NCBI GenBank assembly: GCA_905178155.1
Contig: CAJINV010000005.1
Span: 5,615,469-5,679,468 of the forward strand
Source of the DNA: Amoebophrya sp. A120
Taxonomy: Eukaryota; Protista; Dinoflagellata
Length of the DNA: 64,000 bases
Reading direction: 5' to 3'
The notes below the pieces were generated by a model. It was not told the origin of the DNA. It saw only the letters and a list, made by a program, of their open reading frames with translations, and searched no databases. Below, piece by piece: positions 12,732-59,293 of this stretch (its first letter is position 1; every line of letters starts with the position of its first letter). The translations under genes and the position numbers were made by a program.

Positions 12732-13978
12732 GCAATTCTGTGCATTTCATAATGCAATACAGAAATGATGAACCAGTTCTCGTTCTTCCCACTGCGCAGT
12801 TTAGGGCATTACTAGCTGTGTACCACGGAGAACGAAACTTTGTTTGCGGATACTGAGATTTAAGAGGACGTCTTCCAGGGGGCGTTCTGAAAGATCACAT
12901 TATCCAGATGAAGTCTACACATATTTTTCAGAACTGAAAAACGGTTTTACGGAACAATATTACTACTACTTCTAAAGACACAAAAAAAAACTTGACGGTT
13001 TGATTTTGAAAATCAAGTACTTATAATGATTTGCGTTTTGACGACGTCTCTGCACTAAAAACTTGCTGATTCAGGTGCAGCTGACGCTCCGCAAATTTGT
13101 AATTTACATGTACTTGAAATATTTTCTTTTCATGATCTTAAAGCTATTACTCTATTCAAATTGTGCACTTCTAAAGTCGATCATCTACTACGTTTTTCTT
13201 CTCGACGGGCTACCAGTGAGATTTGGTAGACAGGAAAACTGAACTGGAATTGTGATGCAAGGTCGCATCATCCGCTAATGGTGAACCTTTGGACAGCACA
13301 TGGATAGATGATTTAAGATTTCGGCAGAGCTCGACACAGAAAAAAAAATTTCCTCCGAAGCGAGGAGGCGCAGCACCAGCTCAGAAGGCAGAGCTTCTGA
13401 CTGGTTGCTTGGGTTGCGCTTCGAATCGCACTAGTCCGACCTGTTCTTTGGACGAACTAAAGATAGCCGCAGTGTTCCTTCCGTTGCCCGCGGCCGGTCG
13501 CTTGTTCGTTCGTCCTTGTTCTCGTAATGCACAAGGGTTTTTTGACACCTGCAAATCAATCATGTCGCGCAGAGGATCTCGATCAAAAACGCCTATTTCG
13601 GATCGTGACTATTTACTCCAAAATCTTGTTATCGAAGATTCACAAATCGAACTGACCTGATTTCACTTGCTTCAGGCCAAGAAATGCTGTGAAATTTTTT
13701 GAAGTTCGGCACGACCATTTTTTCTTTCGACTGCTAGACCACCCGAGAGGAGTTAAAAGATCTTCGTATAGTCGATCCTCACGTAGGGGTCTGTCGGAAT
13801 TCTGCATGGAAAGACACGGCTTGCTCGAGATCGAATCCGTCCTTCCTTCGTCCAACTTCATTCAGTACCATAGCGATGAGAGGCAAGAGAGCTCTTGTTC
13901 TTAGCTAGTGACACCCTGTCCGTATTTCTTGTCAATTTACCTACCCAAGCTAAAAGCGCCGTAGCGTCGCAGCTCAAA

Positions 13979-16900
13979 ATGTCCTCTTCCACAGCAACTG
14001 CGAACGGTAAGGCGAAAGCCGCTGCTGCTGCCGTACCCGCTTTACCGAAAGCAACCACTAGTATGAAACGGGAAAAGGGCAAGGAATCGCCGGGAGCAAA
14101 ACGCACGAAGAAGGACGGTGGAAATAGCGGGTCTCCCGCTGTCCACTCGCCCTCCCGCAGGAACAGTAAGAACAGCAGCGCCCCCGCAGTGGAACAAGAG
14201 GACCCGCAGCGTGGTGCGCAGGCGTTGCCAGGAGCAGCGGCTGCTGCAAAAGGAACCACTACATCGGGTTCGTTTACCCTTCCACCAGCAGCAGCAGATC
14301 CTGCGAAGCAAGCTGCCAACCCTGCTTCAGGAGCGAATATAGCGCCACCTACAGTTGTGGCAGGAGCACCGTTTACTTCTCTGTCCGCGAATTGTACTCC
14401 CGGAAAAGGAGCTGCTTCGTTAGTTACAACAACTTCCACGACGAATCACCACGCCCCCACTTCCACTTCTACACCCGCAGCTGCGATCAACACTGCCGCG
14501 TCCGTATCCCTTCCCACCCATGCGACCACGTTTGTAAAACCAGTAAAACCGCTTTCCCTCTCCGCAAAGGAATTTGACGCGGTGAAGCGCGCGCAGGAAC
14601 AGCTACGGAAACTGGAAGACCAGACGGTATCGGACCAAGTGATTATTCAAAACAGCTTTGAGGATTTGAAACAGCCGTTTTTTCAGGAACGGAATATCCT
14701 GTGCAAAAGTATCGTACTCATATTGCAGTCATGCATTACAAATTTTTATTGTTTAGTCAAATCCGCATTACAATTTACAAATTTTATTTCTCATGCTGAG
14801 GAAATTTGTAATGCATTTATACGAGTCCGATACTTTTGCAGTTCATACGGAATCAATTATTGCAATTCTTCCCGAAATTCTGGGGCAACGTCGTGTTGCG
14901 CATCTTCGATCCGCAATGGAGAGGGCTGGCTGCGACGGCGAAGAGTAGAGAGGGAAATACTGTTCCACTGTCGGCTCGGAGCGGCAGCGGCGGGCCGAGT
15001 AGAAGGGGGCAGAGCAATAGTAAGAGTTCCAACGCGAGTGGTAAGAGACCGGGAGCAGTGGGTGCAGCACCTCCTCCTGCACGGGCGCCTGCGGGAAGTA
15101 GGACCACTACCAGTGCTGGTGGAGCGGCCACGCCAAACACGACGGGAAGTACCACAGCCACTGCTGGTAACACGCTTTCTCGCAGTTTAGGCACTATGGT
15201 GGGACCAGGTGGAGGGACGAATACAACCGGAAGTGCTGCAGCTCCGGGGCGTAGCATGTTTAGCTTTGCTTTCTCCAATTTGTTTGGCTTCACGATCATG
15301 ACAGAGGACGCGAACAACAACATCGCGTCTGGTGGGTCGAACATGAATGCGAATACGGCTAGTACTGGGTCCGGAACTGGGGACCACGGAGGAGCAACTA
15401 CAACTACCGCAGCATCCACCTCTTCCCATGCGGGCACAGTTGGTGGATCCTCCAACACAAGAACTACCCCAAGTGCGGTTGCAGCAGCAGTTTCCACGAC
15501 AGCGGCCGCACCACGGCCGGCTGATTTCGACGAATTTTTCCCGCCGATTATCCCGGATGAAGACGACAATTTTATCATGGAAGATGACATTCTAGGCGAG
15601 CATCAATCTGCACCTGCTGCGACTAGATCTACTTCCTTTGTCGGAGAAAATCAAAACGAACTCTCCGAACTCCTAGACGTTCACCTGCAGGACAATTTAG
15701 ACGCCTTCGGCTCGCACCGATTTTCATTTGCGTTTTCGTCGCAGTTGCTGCGGCGGGCGGGGACGGCGAAAAGTAGTAGTGGAGGTGGTGGAGCTCCACA
15801 TATTGGTGTAGTCTCCTCGTCAACATCTGCCAGTGCTGGTGCCACGGGAAACAAGCGGTCGCCAAGTAAAGAGCGCGGCGCGGGGACGGATGCGGTTGTA
15901 AATGGAGCAAAAAGTAGTGCTGCTTCGGCTGCAGCTTCGAAAACAGCAGGAGGGAAGCCGACCTCTTCGTCATCCGGTATAATTTCAAACTGTTTCTTTC
16001 GCGTGACTAAACGTGTGAACTGCGCCCAGGGCGTGGTAAAAGTGGAGGTGAAAAAGATTGCGCTGCCGGGAAGTGGTAATTCTGGAGGAGGACATCAAAC
16101 TGATCCGACTGGCAAGAAGAAAAACAAAGCCAGTAGTACCGCTGGAAATTCAACTCGCGCGGCGACCACAAGTGGTACTAGCGCAACATCTAGTACGACA
16201 GCTGTTCCACCCTTGACCAGCAGCAATGCCCCCCCGACGACTTCAGGAGCTTTGCATCAAAATAACCAAACCACAAGAAACCAGCAACCCGCCATTCCCA
16301 CCCCCGGGATTTTTACGTATCCTGAGGAAAAACGTACCCATACCAGAGTTGTAATGCAGATTTGCAAAGACAGGAAGACTTGTAATGCGCATTCGCATGA
16401 GAGCCATTTTCAGTCGTGTTTTGGAATTTGTGATGCTGTGAACAGGATGAGCAGATGGGTTTCTGATGCAGCTGGCCTTGCGAACCTGCACTACACTACG
16501 GACTGCAACTTGTGATGCGTGACTCACAAAGCTCCTAGGTTTGTGTTGCAAAATCCCCATCCTGACTCTGGTGCGGGTACGTTTTTACTCAGGATATCAC
16601 GTCCTTGGTCAACGCCATTCGCACAACGTCCAACTCGACCAACGCGACACCAACGGGCACGCCGAACCCCAGCCCGGGCAGAAACCGACCTGCTGGTGGT
16701 GCAACTTCCGTTGCGAGCAGAATGGCACGGATGGTCAGAGGGGTCGGAGGTACAAATGGGCAGCAGAATAATTCTTCCTCTCCGCACGCGCACATTCTGA
16801 CCGCGGCGGAATTGAGTAGTCCCACCTTGATACAACAATTTTTCACGAGTAGATTGAAGGAGAGGTTGGAAAAGGCGCAGGAGAAGGCGGAGATGGGTCG

Positions 16901-18946: not shown

Positions 18947-21900
18947 ATGGCCACCTTCATCGTCCCACCCGAACCTCCCCTCTTCACTGCCACTCTCGAG
19001 GAGTTGGACAAAATTTCCTTTCGCGAGTTCACCGCCGAGCAATACGACCAGTGTGACAAATATCCACAGCAAATTTCTCGTACACGTACAAATGCGGCCC
19101 CTGCATGGCAAAACTTGGCTTCCATCCTGGTTTAGCATGGCAAGTTTTAGTACACTCCAAGTTGGTGAAAATTGTGTTGCATCTTGTGCATGTAAGGGAA
19201 ATTTGTATTGCATAACAAAGACAAAATCCCACCCGGCCAACTCCTGATCGCGGTGAAGAATGTCGGAATTTGCGGGTTATCCAGGAAAAATTACCCATCC
19301 CCATCCAATTTGTCATGCAGACCATGCATAATTTTAATTTGTAGTGTGTGTCATGCAAAACATGGATGGGGATGGGTGGTTTTTCCTGGATACGGGTCCG
19401 ACGTCCACTACTGGAAGCATGGGCGGATTGCCGACTTTGTCGTGGAACAACCGATGATTCTGGGCCACGAGTTATGAGAGTGCACAACCTTCCCTCCCCC
19501 TCCCCCTCATTTGTATTCCATGAACAGCAATACAAACAGCACCACACGTGGAGCCAGTGCATGACAACTTCCTGAGCCTACTGTAGTACTGTTTCAGATC
19601 CCGGAATCTGTCATGCAGACCGTGCCGCAACGCCACGATAGGATTTCGGATTTTGCATGACAAAGGAGAGGGAGGGGGAGTTGTGCATTCTCATACGAGT
19701 GCACTGGGGTGGTGGTAGGGGTCGGACCGAGCAGCGGAACAACAAGTGCTGGCTATCCTGTGCAAAAGTATCGTACTCGTATAAATGCATACAAATTTCC
19801 TCAGCGTGAGAGCTGGAATTTGTCATGCTGTTTTACCTTAAGGACAACATTTGTCATGCACAACTGCGATGTTTAGTACGTGTGCGATACTTTTGCACAG
19901 GATACTGCCGCTCCCTCCACAACTCTCCTCCAAGTCGGCGACCGAGTGGCGCTGGAGCCCGGAATTCCCTGCGAGCAGCCGGATTGCGAGATCTGCATGA
20001 CAAAGTCCACAGTCGCAGCGCCGGCGGAGTACGGCAAAGAGATGAAGTTCAAATACAACCTTATGGGGGTGTCAGGATTGCAAGCGCCTTCAGAGTCGAG
20101 ATAGTTTGTCATGTATAAAATGCAGCCCACAGAGTGCCTGTCGTGCAGAGTAGGCAAGTGAGGCAGATTGTAAGCCTGTTGAGAGGTAAAAACTGAGCTG
20201 CTAAAGTAGCATGACAAAAGGCGTCTTCCTTACCCAAACAGCATGACAAACTGGATTTCGGCCCTACCCAAATTTGTCATGCGCTACTTGGGAGCTGGAT
20301 TACAACTTTCACCCATTTTATGCATTACAAGTTATCTACTTAACTTTGTCGATTTCAATCTTGACACATCCATAAACCTCTGCCCCAGGGTAAAATTCTT
20401 CGCGACGCCACCGATTGACGGTATCCAAGAAAAAAACGTTGTTAGTGTAAATTTGTGATGCGCAACATGCAAGATGATTGCGTCTGTCATGCTTAGCATG
20501 CATCGTAGCGCCCACTAAAGGGCGTTTTCGCGTGCTATCTGCGCATGACAGGTTTTTGCTGTCATGCCAGACAATGCTGTTCCTCCAAAAAAGTTACACC
20601 TACAATCTTTTTTCCTGGGATAGACGGGTCTCTGCGAACAGTAGTTACCCACCCGGCGAAATTTTGTTTCAAGCTCCCAGACACGGTCAGCTTGGCGGAG
20701 GGGGCGCTGTGCGAGCCGTTGAGTGTGGGGGTGTACGCGTGTGGACCGGACAAGGGGCAGGTAAAGGAGGGGGACTCGGTAAGTATTGGAAAGAATTTAT
20801 TTTTCAGAATTGTTCATCGTTTGTGATCATATGCTCTTGCATTTGCAAGCAGAAAGGAAAACTGTAGCTGTGTGCACAAAATCCTCGTGCAGCTGGAATA
20901 GGGATGAAGATACCAGCTCAATTTAACAAAAGCAGCCTAGTCGCATCACAACACCGACGCGCGAGCTGTACGCCGCCCGCGCAAAACTGTCGCAGCTATT
21001 CGCCGTTGCTGCCCACGTTGCGTTCTGCTTCTGATGCGCCGCCGCCCGCGACTCTACCTCTAATAAGAACGCAGGAGATTTCTTCCTGGGGCTTTGCGGG
21101 TCAGCACAAGTGCGAGGAGGTAGCTGCTGGTAACATGATGAGCGCGCGCTGCCCACCGTGCACACGTGTAGTGCGTGGCACTTGCGAGAAAGTTTGGGAA
21201 TGTGATAAAACAGGTAAGATCAAGTTTTCAACAACATGCCTTCTGAGCCAAATGTAGAGTCAAGAAAAGAACCCATGCTGCGATTGAAAAATGTAAATGC
21301 TAAACTCAAATAAAACTTGGGCCTCCGAGACGCAGCAACACAATAACTTCCGTTTGAGCTATGCTGCTGAAAATGCTCTATCATGTTCATCCTCCGTGTT
21401 CCACTATCAGGTCATCATCTTTGGCGCCGGACCGGTCGGCACCCTTTGTGCCCTTGTCGCAATGGGCCTCGGGGCAAAGAAGGTGGTGGTCTGCGACGTG
21501 GATGTAAACCGATTAAAATTTTTACAAGACACTTTCAACGACGAGTATGAAGGTGAAAAATGAAAATTCTGTCAGAGGAAGTCATCTGCTGCATGGTTGA
21601 AAATCAAAATTTTATGGTTGCATCGATTTAGAGCACTAGTTCTTGACAAAACTACATAAATCTGCATCTGTTCAACCCCGACGGCAATTTTTCATCACTT
21701 TTTCGCCTTCCATACCCCCCAAGACCGGCTCTCCACGCACTTCACCGGTAATGGCGCCACCGCCCGGGATTCATCCACGGAGGCAATGGAGAAATTCAAC
21801 AACGGACAGCTCTACGACTGCGCCATCGACTGCTGTGGCGTGGCCACCGCGATTAGCTGTGCGATCTACAGCACAAAACCGGGAAAAAGGGTGGTATTGG

Positions 21901-22428
21901 TCGGGATGGGCGGAAATTTTTCCAATATACCGCTAATCGACGCAAGTATCCGGGAGGTGGATTTGGTGGGGGTTTTTCGGTACCGCTACACCTACTCGAC
22001 GTGCATTCAAATGCTCGCGGAGAAAAAGATCGACGTGTCGAAGCTGATCACGCACAAATTTCTATCACAGGAAAAAAAAATTAACGGTAACGGAATTTGC
22101 GATGCAGCAATGCATCGCAAAGCGTAAGTACCCAAATTTGTCATGCCTAGCCTGCGTGCTAGCTTGTTTTTGTGATGCACTACTGCAATCTCTAACCTTC
22201 TTTCTTGTGATAATTTCCATTCAGTCAGGAGGGCGTGGAAAACGCGATGGAGCATTGTAGTATCCAGGGAAAAACACCCTTCCACATCCAATTTGTCATG
22301 CAAAACATAAGTACATAAAGTCCTGCGCTTGTCATGCAAAAAATGGATGCTGGAACTGGATGGGTTTTTTTCTGTGGATATGTAGGACGGGGAAGGACGG
22401 GTGTGTGAAAGCGATGTTGGAGTTGTGA
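18947..22428 (+). CDS. SORD: Zn-dependent sorbitol/xylitol (L-iditol) dehydrogenase, MDR family; 9 introners and one GT-AG intron (20779-21410)
   Basis: Spliced motifs [43 protein letters not shown]...[48 protein letters not shown]. Confidence 0.95.
19061..19214. mobile_element. Introner family C
   Basis: TIR; ACAAA/ACAAA. Confidence 0.9.
19278..19392. mobile_element. Introner family E
   Basis: tatccaggaaaaattacccatccccatcc TIR; CGGGT/CGGGT. Confidence 0.92.
19473..19695. mobile_element. Introner family H
   Basis: TIR; CGAGT/CGAGT. Confidence 0.92.
19754..19904. mobile_element. Introner family A
   Basis: TIR; CTGGC/CTGCC. Confidence 0.9.
20062..20374. mobile_element. Introner family F
   Basis: TIR; AACCT/AACCT. 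Confidence 0.9.
20422..20622. mobile_element. Introner (singleton family in this window)
   Basis: tatccaagaaaaaaacgttg / caatcttttttcctgggata; GACGG/GACGG. Confidence 0.88.
21546..21714. mobile_element. Old introner with decayed direct repeat
   Basis: tatgaaggtgaaaaatg / cactttttcgccttccata; ACGAG/CCCCC; element + 5 nt removal still restores frame. Confidence 0.78.
22063..22212. mobile_element. Introner family D (absent from duplicate exon)
   Basis: TIR; ATTTC/ATTTC; empty site near 24155. Confidence 0.93.
22261..22380. mobile_element. Introner family E (absent from duplicate exon)
   Basis: TIR; TGTAG/TGTAG; empty site near 24200. Confidence 0.93.
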
Positions 22429-23812
22429 TGTTCGTTTACTTCATAATAAATCATGCTCCTGCAGATGGCTATAAATAGAGTAATCTTCTTCAAACAACTT
22501 TCCAGACCCAGAGATTTCATTGTGTAGTGTCGCTGCAACACAAGAAAAAGAATCGTTATGTGAAGCACCATTTGTTAACGTACTAGAGAAAAACTTTGGA
22601 AGATGAAGACGAGAATTGCCATGCGCGTGCTCCCGGTAAATTCTGTGCCAAATATACGTGATGTTTCTGACCAGCACTTTGCCGAGAGCATTCGTTCGTC
22701 TGCGCGCCGACGGACTTGTGGGCCGCAAAAAAGGCACTATCGGTCATCTTTTTTTCCGTGCAAACCGTAGATAATTGTCCTGACTCAAAAACCTGAGAAA
22801 TTATTTATATTTTACATCGTACGAAATAAATCGTGCGCAAGAACAACAAGAAGGCAGCTGTCACGTCATCGTCAAGGGAAGAAAAAACTGTCATTCGGTA
22901 CGTTTATTCGTGGACGTAACAAGGAAATTCGTGGTAGCGTACAAAAACTCGAAGCTCTTTCCAAATCGGTTGAAAGAAGAAGTTGTCAGCACGACATATC
23001 TAGTAGACAGAGTTTGGTTACAAATGGAAACCTCAACAGGTGGTGATGTTTTTCTACCTCCCCCATAGATGACCATTCCCCATACTAGAGGCGATAGTAG
23101 TGCGAGGAGAGGTCGCTGGCGCTAGGCCGCGCCGCCGAAAGAGGTGGACGCACCATCGTGTTTCTAATTTATTTTCATGTAGTTCATATCCCGTGTATAC
23201 TAAAGTTTAAGTTTTACATTTTCTTTTTACACTATTACTTGCTGCAACACAAACTGGACCTGGAAGTAAAAAACCGCTCTGAAGCACGACCCCACCGTGT
23301 GTAGTTACCGAAGCGGCATAGGTGTTTCCCAACATAAATTTCATCATTGTAGTCCCCCGTAGTAGTTTTGTACCCGTAATTTCAGGGCGACGTCCTGCAT
23401 TCGATTCTGTAGAACGACTTGTACGTAAAGGAACAAATTACAAAAAAAATCCTGACTGGGGAAGAATTTTTGCAACCCAAGAAAAACTTTTAGCTTCTTT
23501 GAATCTGTAACTCACTGCATCTCATCAGCGCCTTTGTGTCCTTGTTGAACCTCGGGGGCCACTGGTGGAGGTGGTAAACAAACAGAGGTACTAGCTAGTA
23601 GTAACATTTCGCATAAGTAGCCCGTCGTGGAAAAAAACATCATGGCAGAGAGTAGCTGCACCAGTACCAGTAGCAGCGACAACTACAACGTGGGCAGCAC
23701 TGCATTCGTGGAGAGAATCAGCAGTACTAGTACAACGCAAGATCTAGGTCTTCGCGATGTCGGTGTTGAACGACAGGATATTTTTTTTTCATCACATTTT
23801 CCCCTTCCATAC

Positions 23813-24245
23813 CCCCCAAGACCGACTTGCCACGCACTTCATCGGTAATGGCGCCACCGCTCGGGATTCCTCCACGGAGGCAATGGAGAAATTCAACCAC
23901 GGCCAGCTCTACGACTGCGCCATCGACTGCTGTGGCGTGGCAAGTGCGATTAGCTGCGCGATCCACAGCACAAAACCGGGAAAAAGGGTGGTTTTGGTCG
24001 GGATGGGCGGGAACATGTCGAACATACCCTTGATCGACGCAAGTATCCGGGAGGTGGATCTGGTGGGCGTTTTCCGGTACCGCTACACCTACGCGACGTG
24101 CATTCAAATGCTCGCGGAGAAAAAAATCGACGTGTCAAAGCTGATCACGCACAAGTTTCCGTTCAGTCAGGAGGGCGTGGAAAACGCGATGGAGCATTGT
24201 AGGACGGGGAAGGACGGGTGTGTGAAGGCGATGTTGGAGTTGTGA
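23813..24245 (+). CDS. Duplicated, intact, intron-free C-terminal exon of the sorbitol dehydrogenase (partial gene or alternative exon)
   Basis: [58 protein letters not shown]; mostly synonymous differences from copy 1. Confidence 0.7.
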
Positions 24246-25309
24246 CTTGTGTTTGAATGAATACTAAATAGATACTTCTTCGTGCTTCAGGAGAAGATCA
24301 CATTTATTGATGAGCATGCACCAAACAAATCATGTACTACGTGCAATAGACAATGACATATCACATCAATGTTGTGAAGCGCATGCGGTAGAGTAGAAGA
24401 AAACAAAAAAACCGAATGTTGCCTGCTGCGCTTCTACTGCTGGAAGCTTTGGCAGTAAGGACGATAGCCATGGAGCCGACCACCGCGTGTAGCCATCTGG
24501 AGCTGTCTGTAACTCTAGCATTTCAACATCAACAAGAAAGGCACTATCGGTCATCTTTTTTTCGTGCAAAGCGAGTTGTCCTGACATAAAAACGAAAACC
24601 TCGTCCTGACAAATTATTTAATACATCGTAAATTATAGTGCACAAGAAGAACAACAAGAAGGCAGCAGCTGGTGCCATGTCATCGTTAAGAGAAGAAAAG
24701 AGTGTCAGTCGGTACTTTTTTCTCGTGGACGGAAGAGCAAAGAAATTCGTGCTAGGGTACAAAAACAACTCGACTTTTCCAAATCGGTTGAAGCAAGAAG
24801 TGTGCAGTACCACATAAAAATAGCGAGACAGCGTTAGTTTCGTCACAGAAAAATCGAAACCTCGACTACAGGTGGTGTCGTTTTTCTACCTCCCGCCCTA
24901 TAGACCTACCACCTTTCCCCCATTATACTAGAGGCGATAGTAGTGCGAGGACAGGTCGCTGGCGGTAGGCCGCGCCGCCGGAAGAGGACGCACCATCGTG
25001 TTTCTAATTTTCCATGTGCATGTAGATCATTGCCATCCCGTGTATACTAAAGTTTTACTTTTTCTTTTTACACTATTAATTGCTGCAACACAAACTGGAC
25101 CTGGAAATAAAAAACCGCTTTGAAGCACGACCCCCCCACCGTGTGTAGTTACCGAAGCGGCATATTAGGTGTTTACCAACATAAATTTCATCATCGTAGT
25201 CTTTTTAAACCTCGGAGGCCACTGGCGGAGGTGGTAAACAAACAGAGGTCGTAGTAACATTTCTCATAAGAATAAGTAGCCCGTGGTGGAATTGGAAAAA
25301 AAAAACATC

Positions 25310-28300
25310 ATGGCGGAGAGTAGTTGCACCAGTAGCAGCGACAATTACAACGTGGGCACTGGAACTGGTGCTGCAGTCGTGGACAGCATAAGGAGCACTA
25401 CAACGCAAGATCTAGGGCTTCGCGATGTCGATGTTGAACGACAGGATATTATGCAGCTGCAGACAACATCTGGAGACTCTCGTCGGGAAGAAGTAGAGGA
25501 GTCGTGCCGGTCAGCATCATCCTCTACAGGAGCTCCTCCGTCTGCAATATCAAAAATGAGCACCACGACGACGACGAAACAAACCCTGTTGACACCACCT
25601 GCGATAGCGACATCGACACCACAGAATATCAAGCAGGGCCTCGACCTCTATCAAGTGCAAAAGTGTCTGGGTCTGGAAGGATGTAACTTGTGATGCGCAT
25701 TTCAGAACACACAAAAATCTCTGATGCATAGGCAGCAAAAGCTGCTCACTTTCTGTCACCAACATGGCGGATTTGATGTCATGCGGATTCGGCATTGCGG
25801 AAGCTTCTCGAAACCTGTGACGCTAGAGCTTCCATGCCGGGCCTTCTGTGTCATGCAGAAACAGCATGACTCTTCCAGACCCAGACACTTTTACATTTGA
25901 TAACCTCCTCTGGACTACGAATCTCCCAGACGGCGTTCTGGTCGAGATTTTCGAGTTTCTCGACCCTTTGTCGAGTTTGTACTTTCTCCAGGCGAATTGC
26001 ACCAGTAGCACCGGCGGTTTTGGCTCGTTTTTATCGCCGGAGAGAGGACGAGAACAGGAAGGTCTTCAGGATGTTCCTGGCGGGGGGACACCAAACGGCA
26101 ATAAACTCCTGCCCAACTTCGGCATCAACTTCGTGACCACGAACAATATCTCGTCGCTCCAAAGGTGCCTCTCGAACGGCGACGTGGTGAATTTGAGTGT
26201 TGCTCCGACGGCGGCAGACCTGGTGCAGCTGGTGCACCAGCACGGTCAAAGAACAGCAGTCCAGACAGCAGCAGAGAATTTGCAGACCGGGTTCTTCGGA
26301 GCAAGTGCAAGTTCCCTGGAAGACAACGCTAAGTCAACCGCAAGTACGGTATCCACATCCGCAGCTGTCACGACGACAAACTCCATCTCGACGACTTGTT
26401 CTGGTGCCAGTGGATCATCATCTTCGATGTCGTCCTTTCATCTTCACCTTTGTTCCACGATGAGTCCAATGTCCGCGAAAAGTCCGATTAGCAGTGTCAT
26501 GGAGCTCTCACCGGAGTTGGAGCCCGCTTCCGCAAGTGCAACAACTCCATCGGCAATAAAACAAGCATCCACGACCTCGTCGACCTCCGGGACGACCACG
26601 ATGAAGGCGACGATCACTCTACCGCTGTCCCATTTCGAAACGGGGATTGTGCCGGTGCCAGCGAAATTGCCGCTGCTGAAGTCGTTGCACATATCGGAAA
26701 TTTCTCTGCTGGATGAGAATCAGGATCTGGACGAGTTGCAGTGGCTGATTGAATATGAATTGCAAAAGCATCGCACTAGCATAAACTGCATTACAAGTTG
26801 TCTCAGCATGAAAAGTTGACTTTGTAATGCTGTTTTACCTTGGAACGGAAATTTGTCATGCATGCCTGCAATTAGTACGAGTGCGATACTTTTGCAATGC
26901 ATATTGAAGAGAATTCGTACTTGACAGAGATCAAAATCGGCGGACAATTGGAATTTCTGCGGGCGGTGAACAGTTCGGATTGTTCTTCCAGCGAGAAGAA
27001 AGACGAAACTGCTCCTGCTGCTGCTGTCAAGAATTGTTCGCCAGCAAGCGCGGCGGCCTCCAAAGTAGAACAAAATAACAACTCTACAACTACCACGACG
27101 ACGACCCAATCCTTGCTGATGGAGCGTCTCGCAAAGCTGCGTACCTGGTTCGAGAGGAATTTTGAAAGGTCGATTGAGCTCAAAAAGGAGGAAATCAAAG
27201 CCCAGGCTGCGTTTTCAGCGTTGTCTCGGACCGTGTCCCGCGAAATAACAGGAGACCATCCTGTAGTTCAGGCGGGCAATAATAAAAATTCGCCGAGTGA
27301 TCATGATTCTCTTTCTCCTGTGGATGATGATCATGCTCTTGACCAACACAACTTTTACAACGGTCAAATGACGTCAACCACTGGTGCAGCTCATCTCTCC
27401 CGAAGCAAAAACCCTTCTTCGCACTTCTCCTCGTTAGCCGATCTCCACACGTCGGCTGCCGCGTACGCGTCTACGGCGACGGGGGAGGAAAACAACTCGC
27501 TGCATCTGAACAACACGGCTTCGGAGCGGTATTTCGATACTTCGGCGAGTTCAGATGAGGAGGTGGTGACAACACAGTGTATCTTCGTGATGAACACGAG
27601 AGAAGATGGCGAAGATGAGGAGCTGCTGTGGGAAGATAGCGCCGACATGGTCGTGGAAGACAAATCGAAATCGTCTCTGCTATCGTTTGAGAACAAGAAG
27701 AACGTCGACCAAGTGATTTGCGTGGAGGATGTTGACAACTTGTCGACAACTTCTGCAGCCTTTCACAAGCTCACCCGCAGCATTCCGACAATGAACACAG
27801 CCACAGCCTCAAGTAGTTTATCCGGAAGCAAGCTGAATTACCTCGTGAAGCGCACCCTGGAAAAAGCTTCTTCCGGAACTGGGTCCAAGGAATCGCTCGG
27901 GAGCGACGGCCCTTCCAACAACTACTGTAACTCCGGCAGTTACAGTGCGTTTGCCTTCTCCCCTTTCGCACGAGGAAGCAATGAGCAATCCACCTTGAAC
28001 CAAACGAAGAGCACGATGGCGCCACACTCCTACGGCGATTTGTTGCAGCAACAGCATTCACCATTGAAATCCGCTACCAGTGGTAATTCGCTTCTGAAGC
28101 ACGTCCCGAGTTACCAAGACGTGAAGAAAAAGTTAAAGCAGCGGCTGGGCGGCGCTGTCCTTTCGGAACCTAAGAACATGGAAGTAGAAGGACAGCAAGA
28201 AAGCATCAATCAATTTCCTGGCGAAATTCAGATTGACGAGGAGACCTTGCTAAAGACGACTTCGAGATACAGTGACAAATATGAGAAGCAAAACATCAGC

Positions 28301-29671
28301 TCCTCTTCCCGCAACACAAATCCACCTGCGACCCTGAATTACGATGTGACCGTTCCGGCCTGTCTCCTCCAATCCCTCGGGGTTAACAACAACTGCCAGA
28401 AGCTGCAGCAGCTCACGCTTTTCCAAATCAAGCCGGAGTCGCTGCTCGGTGTGACGAGAATTTTCTTACCCGAGTTGCTCAAATTGTCCATTCAGTTCAT
28501 GCTGGAATACCGGCCGAACAACAAACCCTACATTTGGAACTACAGCAATCTGTTCGAAACCCCGAAGATCCAGGATCTCCAGCTCGAAAACGTCTCTGCC
28601 AGGCAGGTTTTCCATTTAAACCTCGAGAACAACCAGATACGCGGGGACTTGATTTCCGATTTCCCGCGGGTGACCGGCATAGCGCAGCTGCTGGAACGGT
28701 TGGATCTGGAGGGGAATTTGGAAAAATTCCGGGTGTTTAAAACGAAGCGAATGTGCTTATTACCGGAGGAAGCCGCTGACGTTTTGCGCTTGTTGGCGGG
28801 GAGAGGACGAGGGGAGAATGTCGGGAGTGTTTTGACGCCGAGGGATTTGGTGTTTGATTCAACAGACAGTGATAGTGAATTACAACCAGCGGTCGAAGAA
28901 CCTGGAGTTTGTTTTCCTCAGACGATCAGCGAAGAACCTCGTCCCCAGGGGACACCATTAGACAATTGCCCACCACCAGCAGCACCACCAACAACTACCC
29001 TGTCCGATTCCGACATAGAGCACAAGAATAAAAAGCCCTCCAAGCGACCTCCCGACAATTCCCTGGAGCTGATTTCCTTCGTCTGCCATCCGAAGATCAA
29101 CATAACCTCCGTTCAGGAACTCATCAAGATCCGGATTGGCCTGCAACTCCCCGCGTTCGGGGCACACAAAAACGGGATTACCGCGTCGAAGCAGTGGCCC
29201 AAGAACTGGCCGAGCCTGAAAACAATGTACCCAAGAGGGAAATACCAAATCACCGGGTTTAACGTGTTTCAAACCGACTTTGTTTTCTCGGAATTTGAAG
29301 ACGTGGAAGACGCGGCGGTTGAGTGGCGGAAGTTGATATGCGTTGCAAATATGTCTGGGTCTGGAAGGTGGCAACTTGTGATGCTGTCTTCGGATTCGAA
29401 AGAAAAATGCATGACTAGAAAGAGGAGACGAGTCTGGGCTGCGCGGGGTGGGCATTTCTCCTTTGGAATATGCATCAGAAAGCTCTCCAAAAATCTGTGA
29501 TGCTAGACCAACATCACAGGCATCAGGGGTCATGGAAAATGTGCATGACAAACGTTTCATTCTTCCAGGCCCAGACATATTTACATTTGATAGTTGAACA
29601 AAGAGGAAAAACAGTTCTTCGACGACCTCAGCCTGAGGTTCAGGCGGAAGCTGCTGTTTGATTTGAGTTGA
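25310..29671 (+). CDS. F-box protein with LRR-like segments; 3 introners
   Basis: Spliced LDLLWTTNLPDGVLVEIFEFLDPLS fits the F-box motif; LPLLKSLHIS, CQKLQQLTL, LPELLKLSI, LERLDLEGN are LRR-like; ORFs join in frame. Confidence 0.72.
25649..25902. mobile_element. Introner family B
   Basis: TIR; ACCTC/ACCTC. Confidence 0.92.
26754..26903. mobile_element. Introner family A
   Basis: TIR; TTGAA/TTGAA. Confidence 0.92.
29337..29592. mobile_element. Introner family B
   Basis: TIR; GTTGA/GTTGA. Confidence 0.92.
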
Positions 29672-35189: not shown

Positions 35190-38100
35190 ATGGATTCCGC
35201 AGCCCCAACAAGGTCGAAGCGTTGGCTGCACAACCGGCGGCGTTGGGAGAAACTGCAAGAGAAACATGGCGGCCAGGCCGCGACGAAAGCCAAGATCAAT
35301 GGCAGGAACTCCGATAAGAAGCTGGGTAAGACGGAATTCCTGGGCAGTTTGAAATCCCACAACCAGTTCATAGAGAAAACAACAAGTAAAGGCAGAGGCA
35401 AGCATGGCGCCAGTAGTTCTCGTGGGACTGCTGGAGCTGCTGCTCGTGGTGCGAAGACTAAAAAATCGGGGAAAAAAATCGCTGTCAAGAAAAGCGCGGA
35501 CAAAAGAAGCAAGAAGGGAACCTCGTCTCCAGAACCAAAACCTCCCGCAGGTCAACCTCCTTCAGCCACTGTTGACGTCGTCGACCACACTTCCTTAGCC
35601 GACAAGAACTCCAAAGTGGCTACTGGCGCGACCACCAGCATGAAGAAATTATTGAAAAAGAAGAAAACGACTACGACTGCTGGTACGAAAGCCGCTACTG
35701 CGCCAGCACAAGAACAATCTGAAGGGGCGGGCGCAGTTCGTGTGGAGATCGGGTCTTCTTCACCTCCTTCCTCTAAACCTGATGCCGATCTTGCGGATGC
35801 CGACATCACCGACGTCGACTCAATAAAACCCCTGAACAATAAACGGGGCCGAAATAAAGCGAACAAAACCTCGGCGAAGGAAAAGCTGAAAAAACTGAAG
35901 GAGCAGCAAAAACCCGACGCTGTCCTCGACAGCCTGCGCGTGAAGAAGCAGCTGAATTTGACGAAAAAGGAAGAAACAAAAAACCGACGCAAGTGGCTGC
36001 GCGAGCTCGGTGTGGTTTCCGAGAAAGAGAAGCAGAAGCAGGAAACGGAGGATAAGATCATCACCAAAAAGGGACAATTTGTGATGGAGAATTCTCTGGT
36101 CGACCGGCTGCTGAGGAATGAGAAGAACAAATCTAATTCTGGTACAACTTTGATGGGTACTGGTAGTTCTCGTTTGTCGAAATTCGATAAGAAATTATTG
36201 CGGACGGGGCAGTTGTCCTGGCATGGGTACAGACGAGAAGAGAAGGTCATGGTGACGGAGAACGAGGGAGCGCTGAATAACGTTTTACTTCATGACAAAA
36301 ACCGTAAGAATGATCTTTCGCGCGACAACTACATCGTGCCAGAGTGGAAGTACGAGGAGGCGCTGCGGAGGAGTGGAAAGGCAGCCTCCAACTCTTACGA
36401 CGGTGCAGCAGCTGCATCAGCTTCCAATCATTCGCAACTGAAACACGCTGGCGCGAAGCTGCCAGACTGCCAAGATGAAAGTGAAGAATTCGTCGTGAAA
36501 AAGCAAATCGACGACAGCCTAGCTTTCCTCGGCTGGCGCAGAACTTGGAAGAGATTTTCCATGGTCGAGGGGATTTACCGTGGAAGGAAAAATCTCTGGA
36601 ACGACTTCGCGAGTTGCCAAACCACGGATTTAATCGTCGAGCAGAAGGGCGGGCTGAGCAGAAAGAGGTTAGTCAAGGACGGTATGGCGAGTGACGATGA
36701 GGAGAGTTCAGACGAGGAACATGATGGGAGAGTAAGATACGCCTCGGATTCTGAACGCGAAGCAATTGCACGATATGAACAGGGAGAGGCGGAAATAGAG
36801 GCCGAGTGGGAGGAGGCAAATACAAATGCCGTAGAAGCTGAAGAAGAGGAGGAAAGCGGCACAGCGAGCCCATACTGCGCGACCGCGGAAAGCAGCTCTG
36901 AAAAGGGCGAGGAACTCGCACATGAGGGCAGCTTGCAGGAGGAGGAGAAGCTTTCGCCGCCTGAGGGGGTTCTTCTACCAGAGGACCCCTCTCCTGAGGA
37001 TGAGGAAGCCGACCACGCGAACGTCGAAAAAGAACCTTCCAGCGAAAGCGGCAACTCCGAAGAATTATTTTCGAAAAATAAGCTTACCAAGCCCGTTCGT
37101 TACAAATTCGATTTCTACGGACCATTTTTCGGCTTCAACTACTACATCGGTTTCGACGACGGCCCGACAAGTGCAAGTGAATTGGACGTCGGACCCACGC
37201 CTCTTGCGCTCTACCAACTGAACAAAGCCGCGATCAAGCTCTTTGATAGGATGGAACCAAGCGACCGCAACTACCTGGAGAGCGAAGAGCGGGGGCGGAA
37301 GCCCAATGTGAAAAGCTTCGAGGAGACGCTCCAAAGGACGAAGCTGTGCTTGCGGGCGCTGGTGAAGGAAGCGGTTTTTTCCTCCTGTTCCAATCTGACT
37401 TACAGCAAACTTGCAAGAAACTACCTGTTCGAAGAGCAGGAAGAGGACAACATTAGAGACAGACCGAGGAGAATACGGCAACTCTTCGAGGAAAACAAGC
37501 TCCCAAAGACGCCTCTCCACCCCTTCTTGAAACGCGCGGTGGAGGTGGTGTTCTTTAGCAGTGTGAAGTTTCTGCCTCCGTCCTTGCCCGATTCGATGAT
37601 CACGAAGTTGTTCGAAATCGTGAGTAAAACGGACCGACTGTGTACCTTCGAGTTCAAATTGACCAAGTTCTCATCTCTGACGTCGGAGAAAAAGAAGAAA
37701 ACCCAAACCCCACTGAACCAGCTGACCGACGAAGATATTTTGGCCGAATTTTCCTCTGCCGTGGAGACAGAAAAGGAATTGTGGGCCAGCTTCAATCGGG
37801 ACGAAGGAGATGAATTCGGGAGGTACAGAAACTTTCCCTCTTGTACATCAGAGCGGGCTTTGCGATGGCGCAGTTATCACTGGATAACGGTCGTCTTATC
37901 GACGTCCCTGCAGCGGGCGTTGTTGCAAGTGCTGGAGCACACTCTCGCGGGGCGCCATGTGAGGGTGGTCCGTAGACTCCCGGACGGGAGGGAGAAAGTT
38001 GTTTTCCAAACTACAAAGTGGTATGAAACAGTGTTGAAAAAGTTTCGGAAAGCAGCCGAAGAGCGGAGAAGAGAGATCGAGTGCGGGTCGTTGTTGTTCG

Positions 38101-39538
38101 ACGACGACAAAGAACTACATACCTCAGCAGTTCCATATCAAATGCAAATATGTCTGGGTCTGGAAAAGTGCCAGGTTTGTGATGCATATTTTCAATGACC
38201 CATGATGTCTGTGATGCTTGCCGTAGCATCACAGCTTCTGCGACGGCTTTCTGATGCTCATACCGCATGAGAAATGCCCTCTCCGCGTAGCAAAAACTGG
38301 AGCTCTTTTGCTGTTCATGCAATACAGATTTTACGTAGAGTCCCAAGATAGCATCACAAGTTGCATTCTTCCAGACCCAGACATTTTTGCACTCCATATT
38401 CCATCTTTGGAAACAACCCAGGTCGAGATCCGGATCAACGGAAAGAAGCAGAAAAAATCTTCCAAAGCCAAGCAGCAGACCGAGAAGCAAAAAGACCTCC
38501 TCCACCACCACAGCCGAGTGTTATTGAGGCAGTTGCTCCGGAAAGGACCGTATGGGGAGATGCAGAAGTACGATCGGAAGGAAGATGAAATCGATTTTCC
38601 CTGGTTCCTCGCGGCCGGAACACAGTATGAAAAAGAAACACCCGAGCCGGCGGTGAACTACTACTTCAGAGACTCTCTTTATCGCAAGAAAAAACTGTTT
38701 CACTGTGACTGTGAACTTGTGATGCATAGAATGGAGCACAGAACGATTTGTCTTGCTACACCTGCAAGACATTGGATTTTTACTTTTAGGCGTGTCTTTT
38801 TTTTGGAAGCGCGCATGGCAAATTTTATGTGTCATGTGTAACAAACTTGTGATGCAGATCTTGCAAAGCCATCACAGTGAAGCAGTTTTTTCCCTTGATA
38901 CTCTTCGCGAAGAGTGTGAATACTGGAAGGAGCGGCCGGACTATGGTGCAAATCGCGATACTAAGATCGAGTTTCTGGAGGGAGATTTGGTGGATTGCAT
39001 GGAGAGACAGGTAGAGAACTGGGAAGGGGAAAAGAAAAAGAGAGAAGAAGCGAAATTGGCGAAGGAAAACAGCGAGTGGGATAACGTGTACTACGAGGAA
39101 GGAGAGGACGCAGCCGCAAATGAGGAAGAACATGAAGTAGACGCAGACAACTCTACTTCCTGGTGGTCATCGTGGAACCAAGCCGGCAACACAAACACGA
39201 CTGCTACTGGAGAGTGGCGTGACAAGATGAACACCTACGGAGATAATTGGTGGTCGAGCTCCTCCGGTACAACTGCTTCCACCTGGATGAACTACAGGAA
39301 GACCACGACATCGTCCGGCTTGTCGGAGGATAAAAAGACTCGGAGCGACCCGAAAGGAGCCTCTCTGTCCGCATCCTTTTCGGGGAACAAGAAATTGAGG
39401 CCGATAACGACTTCCAAAAAGCGGTTGCAGGACTTGGAGGACCACGAGCTGAAAAAAATCAAGTGGGAAGTTCCGATGAACAAGGGGAAATCTTCTGCTG
39501 GTAAAGACGAGGATGAGGGGGACGATTTCTTCGAGTAA
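35190..39538 (+). CDS. Hypothetical ~1300-aa Lys/Glu-rich protein; 2 introners
   Basis: The 1002-aa ORF joins in frame with ORFs 38254 and 38753 after removal of the elements at 38136 and 38680; no family recognised. Confidence 0.8.
38136..38398. mobile_element. Introner family B
   Basis: TIR; TTCCA/TTCCA. Confidence 0.92.
38680..38900. mobile_element. Introner family I
   Basis: tatcgcaagaaaaaactgtttcac TIR; CTCTT/CTCTT. Confidence 0.9.
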
Positions 39539-40751: not shown

Positions 40752-43700
40752 ATGGCCGGTGGAGGAGGTAGCAGTAGCCCCTCAAGCGGCAAAGCCGGAG
40801 CGCAGCAGCCGCCAGTAGCCCACGGCAACGGGAAGACGAGCAGCCCCTCCGGAGGTGGATCGGGGAAAGGCAGCAAAGGAAACGGCAGCGAAGCGGTTTT
40901 TCCACCACCCCGCCCGAGCCACAGCGAGGAGAGCAAGGGTAGCAGCGAGGGCCGCGCTAGCAATAGTTTAAGCGAGTCGGTGCTGATGGAATTCAAAGGA
41001 AAATTTGGCAAGGACAAGGACGGAAAGGGAAAAGGAAAGGATTTTGACATGTTAAAGCAGTTGATCTTCATGAAAGGGAAGCAAAAAGGTAAGGATAAGG
41101 AAGGAAAAGGAAAAGGAATGTTGAACAAAGGAGAACAAGATCATGTAGAAGCCCAAGCCGAGCGTGAGCCTCCTGAGCCCCAGAATAAGGAACAACACGC
41201 CGCACCGGAAAGTCCTGCGTCCGGCGGAGGTACTAAAGGCGGGAAGCAGAAGGGAAAATTTGGGAATAAAGGCAAAGATGGAAACGAAGACTGGTCTGAC
41301 AGTGAGGAGAGCCAAAGCGGCAAAGGCAAAGGCTTTGTGAAAGGAGGCAGAAATAAAGATCCTTTCGCCGGTAAGGGAGAAGTTCATGTGCCCGCCCACG
41401 GGATGAAAGGGCCACCAGACCATCCCGAACTAGAAGCACAGGGCAATAAAGGCGCGTCGTCTTCTTCTGCATCCTCTTCCAGCGGCGGCCTACCTGCTCC
41501 GCTGTCCAGCGAGGACGGAGATGTTGAAGAGGAGAAAAGCGAGCGTTTGCTTCCCCGCGAGAGCAGTGGTGACGAAAAGCAACCTGCGCCGAAAGCCAAA
41601 AAGAAGAAAAAAGAGAAAAAGAAAAAGCGAGGTAACGGACGTGATCGTGAACCCGGGGGCGAAAAGAGGAAGGATATTCATGACGAGGAACCATCTTCAA
41701 AGCGCAGAAAACACGACCATCAACAACATGGCGAAAAAGAGAATTATTACAACAACAATAAAGGGAGCGGTAAATTTGTACACCACGATCAATACGGAGA
41801 CCACTACAACAGCATCAGTAATAAAGGGACCACCAACGGAAATAAAGGTTACAACCCGGCAGGAACTTCTTCTACAAATAAGGGCAAAGGAAAAAATTCC
41901 TCTCTTGCGGCCATTCCCTGGACCTACACCTGGCTGAAACAAAGTTCCGGGCAGAAGCGGTACCAGGCCTATTGCCGGTTTTGGTACGGGGAGATCAATC
42001 AGGACTTGCTGCACTGGAAGTCGAAAGCAATCACCTGGTATTTGGAGAATTTAATCACCGGGGAAAACACGAGTCTGACCGCAAAGCAGAAACTCCTTTT
42101 CAATTCGATCCAGTACGACGCGAAACAGGGGTCGGATTTCCAAAGGCTCGAGCAGATGGGGGATTCGGAGTGGTACAGCACCTGCATGCACAGAATGCAC
42201 CGGTTCATGCCAGCGACTTCCGAGGGGGATTTCACCAATTTCTCCCAGTCCAGCGGTATGGTGCGGAAGCAGGGGGTGAAGCAAATGGAGTCGAATGTCA
42301 TCATGATATGCAACACAAATAATTTCCCGTACATTTACAAAATGCATCACAAGTTGAAACTTCGCTAAGAGTAAGAACGCGGGGTTGCGTCAAACTACTT
42401 GTCATGCTGACCACGATTGAAGGCAAGTTTTGTCATGCAGAAACAGCATTTGCTTTTGTACGCGTACGGAAAATTATTTACAATGGATACATGGCACTGT
42501 GCTTCTACAAGATGTGTCTCGGGGAACTGTTTGCGAAGAATTTGATCAAGTGCAGCATATCCTGCGCAAAAGTATCGCACCTGTAGTATTAATTGCGTTT
42601 CTGCATTACAAATCTCTTTCTCAAGGTAAATCAGCACTACAAATTCAATTTGTAATGCCGGCTAATTTGTAATGCGATGTAAACTAGTACGATGCTTTTG
42701 CACAGCATATAGCAACATGGACACGAAGTCGAACGCCCAACTGCAAACCGCATTGTCGAAGTGTGAGAATTTTTGGCTTCATTGGGACAAAACCCACCTA
42801 AGATTCGGGGAAGGCTGGTGGAAGGCGAGGCAAAATGTCGTTTCTCGACGAGATTTCGAGGAATTTATGGACGACGAGACGAATTTTATCGACGAGAAGC
42901 CAGACGATAACGAGCGGAGGAAAGTGGGGAACAACGGCTCATACGCACCCTACAACTTCACCGTGCAGCACGATCCGGATTTCGAGCGGCACATTTTTGG
43001 CAATTTCAAGGTGATCGAAAAGCAGGGCAAGAAACGCAGACGAGACGACGGCAGCACGGAAAACGCGGAGAGAGAAAGTCTCCCCTACCCGCTATGGATT
43101 GCAAAAATGTGTGGGTCTGGAAGATTATGAGACTTGTCATGCACCTTTTGCATGAGCCATGATGTCTGTGATGCATGCCGTAGCATCACAGATCTTTTCA
43201 GGGGTTCTTCATGCCTATTCCGCATGAAACATGCCCTCTCCGCGTAGCAAAGATCACACTTCCTTTGCTGCTCATGCAATACAAATTTTTTTGGAATCCA
43301 AACGCAGCATCACAAGTTCCATCCTCCCAGACCCAGACACTTTTGCATTCCATACCCACCAAGGGTCAACGACGAACTGGAGTTCCGTGAGACCACTAAC
43401 CCAAAGTCCTGGCACGTCTTATGAACTACAAAAGTATCGACGTACTCGTATAAATGCATTACAAATTTTCTCAGCATGAGAAATAAAATTTGTAATGCTG
43501 ATTTGCTTTGACAAAAAAATTTGTAATGCAAGACCTGCATTTATACGAGTGCGATACTTTTGCACAGCATACGTCTTCTACCTGGGCCGCGATTTAGATG
43601 ACAACCCCTACTGGCTCAGCAACCTCGAGGCGAGTCTCCAAATGCGGAGCCAGCTGGTGCGCACGGACGTGAAGATTCCGGCCCGGATATCCTGAGCAAT

Positions 43701-58451: not shown

Positions 58452-59293
58452 TCATCCACCTCGCGGCACACTTTCATCCATTTGAATTTGCACTGTGACA
58501 AGAAACTTCGTGGTAGCTTCAAGTTGATTGTAGGAAGTTGAAGTGATAGAGTATCTGACTAACTCTAGGTCTAGATCAGCGTCACTGGGGGCTTCTTTAC
58601 GAGAAGGAGAAGATGACAGAAAGGTATTAATTTTCATCGCAGCGCGTTCTCATTATCATATCATGATGTTTGCATGCGCATTTTTTGGCAACGACCATGG
58701 TGCGTCTTGGTCTTGGTTTCAGGGCAGCAGCCGTGAAGAATTTGGTATCTGCAGCTGCTGTCGTTCTTGCTGTCAGTGGTGCAGCTCCTTGCTCTGTTCA
58801 TCTAAGGATCGTTTCAACATCGTGCAAGGCTTAGTTTTCAAAGTCGGCGGCGGAAAAAGAAATGCAAATAGCGTTACGCAGTGGATGGCTTCTTCGCAGT
58901 CACTGTGCGTCTGCCTGTACCTACTTTTGTGGAACAGCACGATGATTTTTATTCTTAGGACCCACATCTTTTTTGTGTTGCTGCTTTTTCGAACAATGTC
59001 TCGTGCGTTTTTGTTTTTTTTTCAAAATATAACCGTCTTGACACTTGTGCACTTGTTTTGTGATCATCTTGCTCATTGTGTTTAGTGTGCGTAACCTGTC
59101 TGTAATAGTAGATGGGCTAGAGGGCGCGCCACGATTTTCCAAAGCCTTGCTTGTTTATGTTTCGCTCAACAAAAGGAACTGCCTCAATACCTGCCTGTGC
59201 AGAGTCAACAAAGTTATCATCTGCATCACTGAAGATTGCAAGCTGCTCACCTTCAAGTCTATTCTGTTCTAGATCTAGTCTGCTTTTTGAAAA

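Follow-up and report, generated by a model that had tools for sequence, protein, structure and literature searches.

Two strains of the parasitic dinoflagellate Amoebophrya, A25 and A120, carry non-canonical introns, a subset of which has been described as introner elements (Farhat et al. 2021, PMC7789003). According to that work, these elements have inverted repeats of 8-20 nt and direct repeats of 3-5 nt that lie over the exon/intron borders, and the inverted-repeat motif of A120 consists of TAT, a run of seven positions of lower conservation, and three or more A (TAT-N7-AAA). The same paper reported 29,850 repeated introns, considered gain and loss indistinguishable between orthologues, and doubted that movement is mediated by a transposase. 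A later study (Gozashti et al. 2025, PMC12130899) assigns 58 introner families to Amoebophrya sp. A120 in its supplement. Many of them are classed as "TIR DNA, superfamily unknown" (TIR, terminal inverted repeat), their splice sites are mostly non-canonical, and the target duplications detected measure 2-5 bp; the family table has a "Paralogs" column, so the comparison of paralogues is an established test. Here we describe two elements, element 1 and element 2, that interrupt a SORD-like polyol dehydrogenase gene of strain A120 and are both absent from a tandem copy of the 3' coding part of that gene. The locus lies in a stretch of 64,000 nt (contig CAJINV010000005.1 of assembly GCA_905178155.1, positions 5,615,469 to 5,679,468 of the forward strand), hereafter the window, and all coordinates are positions within it.

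Elements 1 and 2 resemble the published introner elements of A120 in lacking GT-AG borders, in having an end hairpin that joins the exons, in their high copy number and in carrying no internal transposase. The A120 motif is fitted by TATCACAGGAAAAAAAAA in element 1 and by TATCCAGGGAAAAA in element 2. At this locus, a diverged paralogue with empty sites identifies the short direct repeat, base by base, as the duplicated target, and the unit by which the two DNA copies differ, the element plus 5 nt, is also the unit that is taken out of RNA.

Results

Filled and empty sites in a duplicated coding exon

Copy 1 of the SORD-like gene is complete and holds both elements near its 3' end, and the second copy of its 3' coding part, copy 2, runs through uninterrupted (Table 1). 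When both elements and one repeat of each are taken out of copy 1, 430 nt remain, which is the length of copy 2, and the two sequences align without a gap, with 32 differences over 429 coding sites. A first, sequence-only reading of this DNA had placed the elements at 22063-22212 and 22261-22380, flanked by two copies each of ATTTC and TGTAG, and these coordinates are exact. It had also described the corresponding sites of the duplicate as single 5-mers without a footprint. The gap-free alignment of 430 nt bears this out, with one correction: the first 5-mer of the duplicate is GTTTC, not ATTTC, and its first base is the position of the synonymous AAA/AAG difference between the copies.

Both elements begin with TAT and end with ATA, and their ends are inverted repeats of one another (TATCACAGG/CTTGTGATA in element 1, TATCCAGGG/CTGTGGATA in element 2) that match at 11/12 and 10/12 positions, respectively. 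In the minimum-energy folds, the inverted ends of both elements are paired from the first base to the last. The predicted terminal stem closes at the element ends in each case, with a folding energy of -44.9 kcal/mol (z -2.9) for element 1 and -44.6 kcal/mol (z -2.8) for element 2. Inspection of the six possible registers of element plus 5 nt found GT..AG in none of them for either element.

The 5-bp flanking repeat across the element family

We screened the window for TAT..ATA pairs that lie 50-700 bp apart and whose inverted repeats match at 8 or more of 10 positions. An exact 5-bp flanking repeat was present in 20 of the 96 pairs, and reading the flanks at offsets of 1, 2, 3, 5, 7 and 10 as a control returned 1, 0, 0, 0, 0 and 0 exact repeats. 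Raising the cut-off to at least 10/12 left 52 candidates, whose flanks matched at 5/5 positions in 19 cases and at 4/5 in 8, compared with 0 and 3 cases at the control offset of 6. No common sequence or target preference was visible among the 20 exact repeats. These counts show that the element family as a whole is characterized by the 5-bp flanking repeat.

Relatives of element 1 in the window lie at 61613-61780, 50498-50662 and 51113-51237, and those of element 2 lie at 19278-19392 and 52559-52681 and start at 63063 and 61422. The closest of them are about 76% identical to their respective element when the window is compared with itself by blastn. In family alignments with three and four copies, similarity begins at TAT and stops at ATA and the flanks are unrelated; these alignments also place elements 1 and 2 in different subfamilies. 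Because the repeats are family-wide, the similarity is bounded by TAT and ATA, and the empty sites are single-copy and free of a footprint, the 5-bp repeats behave as target-site duplications. Miniature inverted-repeat transposable elements (MITEs) are recognized by terminal inverted repeats, a target-site duplication of fixed length and a homologous empty site that holds the target only once, and these three features are present here. An open frame across the excised junction turned out to be uninformative on whether other elements lie in exons, as 99 of 300 random pseudo-elements have one too.

A 10-base core, TTTGTCATGC, is common to several subfamilies and occurs 51 times on both strands of the window, where 0.34 occurrences are expected. 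Twenty-nine of the 51 cores fall inside 28 delimited elements. In three elements of 308-313 bp, the core is repeated at an exact spacing of 32 bp and in mixed orientation (20209/20241/20273, 46042/46074/46106 and 60694/60726/60758). The core may serve the elements as a site for protein binding.

In the window, we found no 0.7-12 kb element that combines matching ends with a 5-bp duplication. Ten long open reading frames (ORFs) on the + strand of the window gave no Pfam match at E 0.001, among them 1946-2896, 13895-16515, 25848-29500, 35190-38198, 40752-42368 and 55895-60652, which fits a genome of fast-evolving or poorly known proteins.

Removal of the elements from RNA

To follow the elements into RNA, we compared the window with Logan contigs of sequencing runs that contain the locus. 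Run X1 is a DNA run. The RNA label of runs X3-X6 is a tool's guess, which is backed by their joints and by the lack of X3 cover over the intergenic stretch 22436-22877. The raw RNA runs X9, X10 and X11 contributed 0, 1 and 160 placed reads, and the gene received none of them. The joint that removes element 1, 22056>22212, occurs in X3, X4 and X6 and does not occur in X1. It is phased, as copy-1-specific letters stand on both of its sides within one 31-mer. The joint that removes element 2, 22255>22381, is likewise present in X3, X4 and X6; a 680-nt contig of X4 that contains it runs without a difference into the 3' untranslated region (UTR) of copy 1, and X1 shows this joint solely with the copy-2 letter. 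The 3' half of element 2 is uncovered by contigs of the three RNA-like runs and is covered by X1. At the joints, the removed pieces have the ends AA..AT (element 1) and TG..TA (element 2), with 6 and 5 ambiguous letters, respectively. The joints show that exactly the element plus 5 nt is missing from RNA, even though no register offers GT-AG.

The exact register of removal is hidden where the flanking repeat is perfect, and it can be read in intron 4 because the repeat of this intron is mismatched (CTGGC versus CTGCC). The RNA retains the left CTGG, and the right repeat is removed, which places the 5' cut 0-1 nt before TAT and the 3' cut 4-5 nt after ATA in this single case.

Two further claims of the sequence-only reading can be judged from these results. 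It had taken the 5-bp repeat for a true target-site duplication, with which the family-wide occurrence of the repeat and the single-copy, footprint-free paralogous sites agree, and its term "introner" is apt for elements that leave the RNA though no register gives GT-AG.

Two other contig observations concern the same region. An apparent joint at 22058>22214 was rejected; it is copy 2 placed on copy 1, with 3+1 differences, and it appears in X1 as well. A contig spanning 22033-22241 in X3 and X4 keeps the whole of element 1, alongside the spliced form, and could represent pre-mRNA, intron retention or DNA carry-over.

The SORD-like gene and its introns

Joining the exons of the SORD-like gene at ten RNA joints gives one open frame with a single terminal stop. 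The name SORD-like is fair because the last large exon matches Pfam ADH_zinc_N, human sorbitol dehydrogenase scores best among the solved relatives (E 3e-22), and a protein search returned two longer database relatives, both full-length members of the same family, at 49-50% identity. Run X3 contains nine joints in this gene, of which six are non-GT-AG, two are GT..AG and one is GT..CC. Each of the six non-GT-AG joints takes out an element plus five bases (159, 120, 228, 156, 318 and 206 nt). Exon lengths elsewhere in the gene include 42-74 nt.

Intron 7 is GT..AG, with canonical U2-type ends. A U2-type identity was considered for elements 1 and 2 as well and rejected, as their ends are not GT/GC..AG. 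The GT..CC joint belongs to intron 8 (21545-21718) and has no ambiguous letters in the X3 contig. By eye, the exon end together with the intron start (GAAGGTGAAAAATGAAAATT) can pair with the 3' part of this intron (AATTTTTCATCACTTTTTCGCCTTC), and intron 8 may be a hybrid of the canonical and the hairpin intron types. The left breakpoint of the tandem duplication falls in this pairing arm.

Table 1. Coordinates of the two gene copies, their elements and the duplicated units in the window
Feature	Position	Strand	Remarks
SORD-like polyol dehydrogenase gene, copy 1, complete	18947..22428	+	11 exons, 10 introns; coding sequence 1209 nt = 402 aa
Element = intron 1	19061..19214	+	Flanking repeat ACAAA, degenerate inverted ends; RNA joint 19055>19215, 5 ambiguous letters
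Element = intron 2	19278..19392	+	Flanking repeat CGGGT; interrupts GICG/SDVHYW
Element = intron 3	19473..19695	+	Flanking repeat CGAGT
Element = intron 4	19754..19904	+	Imperfect flanking repeat CTGGC / CTGCC; RNA joint 19752>19909, 1 ambiguous letter
Element = intron 5	20062..20374	+	Flanking repeat AACCT
Element = intron 6	20422..20622	+	Flanking repeat GACGG
Left target-site duplication of element 1, ATTTC	22058..22062	+	Exonic
Introner element 1, 150 bp	22063..22212	+	Inverted ends TATCACAGGAAA / TTTCTTGTGATA
Right target-site duplication of element 1, ATTTC	22213..22217	+	Taken out together with the element
43-nt coding stretch separating elements 1 and 2	22218..22260	+	Includes the left TGTAG repeat, 22256-22260
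Introner element 2, 120 bp	22261..22380	+	Inverted ends TATCCAGGGAAAAA / TTTTTCTGTGGATA
Right target-site duplication of element 2, TGTAG	22381..22385	+	
Copy 2 of the SORD 3' coding part, uninterrupted	23816..24245	+	142 codons + stop; Pfam ADH_zinc_N, E 1e-10
Empty site 1, GTTTC, single copy	24155..24159	+	Copy 2 reads CACAAGTTTCCGTTCA
Empty site 2, TGTAG, single copy	24198..24202	+	Copy 2 reads AGCATTGTAGGACGGG
First unit of the tandem duplication	21688..23782	+	blastn of the window on itself, alignment
Second unit of the tandem duplication	23785..25450	+	blastn
Duplication junction, run of 9 T	23781..23789	+	Unit 1 ends in ..GGATATT, unit 2 starts with TTTTTCATCAC..
Aligned segments of units 1 and 2	21688-22062 = 23785-24159		91.5%, no gap; blastn
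Aligned segments of units 1 and 2	22214-22260 = 24156-24202		97.9%; blastn
Aligned segments of units 1 and 2	22381-22428 = 24198-24245		97.9%; blastn
Aligned segments of units 1 and 2	22726-23354 = 24533-25201		78.8%; blastn
Aligned segments of units 1 and 2	23541-23782 = 25201-25450		77.4%; blastn

An old tandem duplication at the DNA level

The first unit of the duplication begins with the final 31 nt of intron 8 and contains the SORD 3' coding part and its 3' flank; having passed about 1.3 kb of flank, it also takes in the upstream region and the first codons of the next gene. Copy 2 retains the 31 nt of intron 8 with 2 mismatches. The duplication is real and old, and since its unit starts in intron 8, passes the end of the gene and abuts the second unit, it is a tandem duplication at the DNA level. 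An X3 contig, 23291-23933, which comes from a study other than that of X1, crosses the duplication junction with 0 differences. In X1, a 41-nt contig common to both copies has a depth of 56.3 and leads into a filled branch of depth 26.7 and an empty branch of depth 26.9; contig depths over the repeated parts of the elements were not taken as copy numbers or ages.

Filled and empty forms could also arise as an artefact if the assembly had set alleles or strains side by side or had taken up sequence derived from complementary DNA (cDNA), and an assembly chimera was what the sequence-only reading had named as its possible refutation. Two alleles are likewise expected to give the near-equal depths seen in X1 for the two forms, and X1 may be the source data of the assembly. 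Nevertheless, this explanation fails on several counts and is very improbable. The coding parts differ at 32/429 sites, identity in the flanks is no more than about 78%, with numerous indels, and the 300 bp past the stop codons are unrelated between the copies. The 31 nt of intron 8 kept in copy 2 show that it is not cDNA. Moreover, X1 contains both forms, the contig that crosses the junction without a difference belongs to a separate study, and both copies are present in the RNA-like runs, each with its own 3' UTR.

Re-integration of cDNA is known in dinoflagellates. We considered whether copy 2 could be a processed retrocopy of the 3' end of the gene, which would lack the elements because it was made from spliced RNA. 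Both 3' introns are indeed missing exactly from copy 2. However, the duplicated unit begins inside intron 8, extends beyond the gene across 1 kb of flank and reaches the first codons of the gene that follows. This flank ends right where copy 2 starts, which marks a tandem duplication at the DNA level, and the copy 2 stop is not followed by a poly(A) tract. We consider a retrocopy hardly credible, and we retain the DNA-level tandem duplication as the origin of the two copies.

The duplicates have a synonymous divergence (dS) of 0.31 (24 synonymous differences) and a non-synonymous divergence (dN) of 0.024 (8 non-synonymous differences). If copy 2 were drifting freely, non-synonymous differences should exceed synonymous ones; instead, dN/dS is about 0.08, which places copy 2 under purifying selection. 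RNA-like contigs cover this copy and include a 3' UTR of its own. Their cover runs unbroken from 23038 to 24424 and joins copy 2 to the 5' region that was duplicated from the gene downstream. The ATG at 23757 opens the SORD frame for 162 codons (ORF 23757-24245), and the next gene's duplicated start codon (23642) does not share this frame. Copy 2 may be a chimeric gene whose product is limited to the C-terminal 40% of the dehydrogenase. In the contigs, exon 8 was not seen joined to copy 2.

The homology of the copies ends exactly at the stop codon and resumes in the later flank. Between these points, about 300 bp after the stops (22429-22725 versus 24246-24532) show no similarity on either strand, with scores of 22 and 21 compared with a shuffle mean of 18.3 and maximum of 30. 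Within the first flank, a stretch of 186 bp (23355-23540) is without a counterpart in the second. It has neither TAT..ATA ends nor a 5-bp repeat and hence is not an element of the hairpin intron family. Further downstream, 29 raw RNA reads of run X11 carry an adapter-like sequence, which we take to be a template-switch oligo, directly before position 25323 of the downstream gene. This suggests that cDNA 5' ends lie at 25323, a few bases into the predicted coding start. Spliced-leader sequence was not seen at this position in the X11 reads.

Gain versus loss of the elements

The filled and empty forms could reflect gain by copy 1 or loss from copy 2, and the sequence-only reading was right to allow for both. 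We put the probability that both elements moved into copy 1 after the duplication at roughly 0.65. Across the flanking-repeat pairs of the window, we estimate about 13 mismatches in about 145 sites, or 0.09 per site, and the raw distance of the duplicates is 0.21-0.26. If these sites are neutral, typical elements are therefore younger than the duplication. The perfect flanking repeats of both elements and their membership in different subfamilies also favour gain, as does the 43-nt exon left between them, which is ordinary for this gene. The strain-specific positions published for such introns (Farhat et al. 2021, PMC7789003) point in the same direction.

Alternatively, both elements would predate the duplication and would have been lost, precisely, from copy 2. 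Such a loss could have taken a single step, through recombination with reverse-transcribed spliced RNA, or in two, through transposon excision and repair across the 5-bp repeats with selection against imprecise products. A single event is more parsimonious than two, and no footprint is left. The purifying selection on copy 2 (dN/dS of about 0.08) means that only exact losses would survive there. The intron 8 remnant is compatible with loss too: the copy 2 transcript holds it as plain sequence (contig 23291-23933), so that cDNA of copy 2 itself would keep it. On the other hand, loss requires both elements to be older than a dS of 0.31, and the repeat pairs of the window are far less diverged than this, with both pairs at this locus being perfect. 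A tract of copy-1 cDNA primed at the poly(A) would be expected to bring a shared 3' UTR, and none is shared, as the homology ends at the stop. The published strain-specificity of these introns also fits frequent gain. Overall, we regard precise loss as unlikely.

Several observations nevertheless weigh against insertion into copy 1 after the duplication, or against parts of the account in which it stands. The two elements are adjacent and form the last two, 3'-most introns of the gene, which is the classical setting of one-step loss via spliced cDNA. Moreover, the 90 nt after the first site are less diverged than the part before it (2/90 versus 30/339, Fisher p = 0.04). A later homogenising event would fit the lower divergence, and the contrast shrinks when synonymous sites are taken by themselves, to a small one of 2/16 after versus 22/77 before the first site. 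The repeat clock assumes neutrality, and selection for a product that does not depend on the register could preserve identical repeats. Elements 1 and 2 are not demonstrably young, since even their closest relatives in the window share no more than about 76% identity with them. There is no outgroup locus by which to polarize the change: a metagenome scan with 86 pattern matches yielded one relative, at 34% identity, and the two database relatives at 49-50% identity polarize none of the seven amino-acid differences clearly. The non-homologous 300 bp or so past the stops imply a history of the duplicates more complex than one clean event. A transposase, or a long element with the same ends, was not found within the window. 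Finally, the element 2 joint and a copy-1-specific letter fit no single 31-mer, so that the link of this joint to copy 1 is strong and not formally phased.

Discussion

The results above led us to consider how elements of this kind could enter a coding exon and leave its transcript. The elements are copies of a repeated, non-coding, hairpin-ended mobile element with 5-base target-site duplications, and in the mechanism that we propose, a transposase with a 5-bp staggered cut would have inserted elements 1 and 2 in two independent events. In the transcript, the inverted ends would pair and draw the exon ends together. A splicing activity would then cut at the base of the stem or 1 nt before it on the 5' side, and 4-5 nt past the stem on the 3' side, a register that derives from one intron, intron 4, with its mismatched flanking repeat. 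Because the removed length equals the element plus the duplication, the frame would be restored and the insertion would be costless to the gene.

A more far-reaching version of this mechanism is a "splicing ruler" matched to the stagger of the transposase, by which the hairpin and exactly five duplicated bases would be removed. We hold this to be speculative and improbable as it stands. If it were true, the ruler would render each new insertion harmless from the first transcript onward, and the removal activity would have co-evolved with, or derived from, the transposition machinery of the element and not from the ordinary spliceosome. The filled/empty pair described here, set in a constrained exon, would then be the cleanest natural before-and-after case of such a ruler. 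Gozashti et al. reportedly concluded in 2022 that introners derive from TIR DNA transposons.

Whichever way the elements came to differ between the copies, a constrained coding exon tolerates two of them 43 nt apart. Paralogue pairs of this kind suggest a route to the genome-wide dating of insertions, and the locus makes a tidy teaching case. The comparison of paralogues as such is already in use for introners (PMC12130899).

Non-canonical introns with paired ends have also been described in other lineages. The nonconventional introns of euglenids (PMC12501133, PMC6221363, PMC3935182, PMC4770533) have unconserved borders, a structure that unites their ends and exact removal, as observed here. 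Euglenids are a separate lineage, and although their introns work alike, we do not claim membership for elements 1 and 2, whose motif and gene relatives point elsewhere. The introns of hemistasiid diplonemids (Thakur et al. 2025, PMC12621601) are mostly non-GT-AG with extensive pairing of their ends, again as in the elements described here, but they differ in their median lengths of 37-91 nt, in 5' ends that are rich in C/G and in their CA-rich motifs. The portion of that paper available to us reports neither TAT..ATA ends nor 5-bp duplications for diplonemid introns. A euglenid or diplonemid identity was dropped because the inverted-repeat motif matches the description of Amoebophrya A120. 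Introners elsewhere differ in another respect, in that most carry or co-opt GT-AG sites, whereas elements 1 and 2 do not.

The accessible portions of the Amoebophrya introner literature did not contain a printed filled/empty paralogue example for these elements, a point on which the supplements of Farhat et al. may bear. In their splice sites, hairpin, direct repeat, family, motif and removal, elements 1 and 2 agree throughout with the structural description of Amoebophrya introners, and we find no structural difference from the elements of Farhat et al. 2021 (PMC7789003); what is added here is the pair of paralogous empty sites. Elements 1 and 2, which both RNA and DNA contigs support directly, are thus a clean further instance of the published A120 introner class and not a new kind of element.

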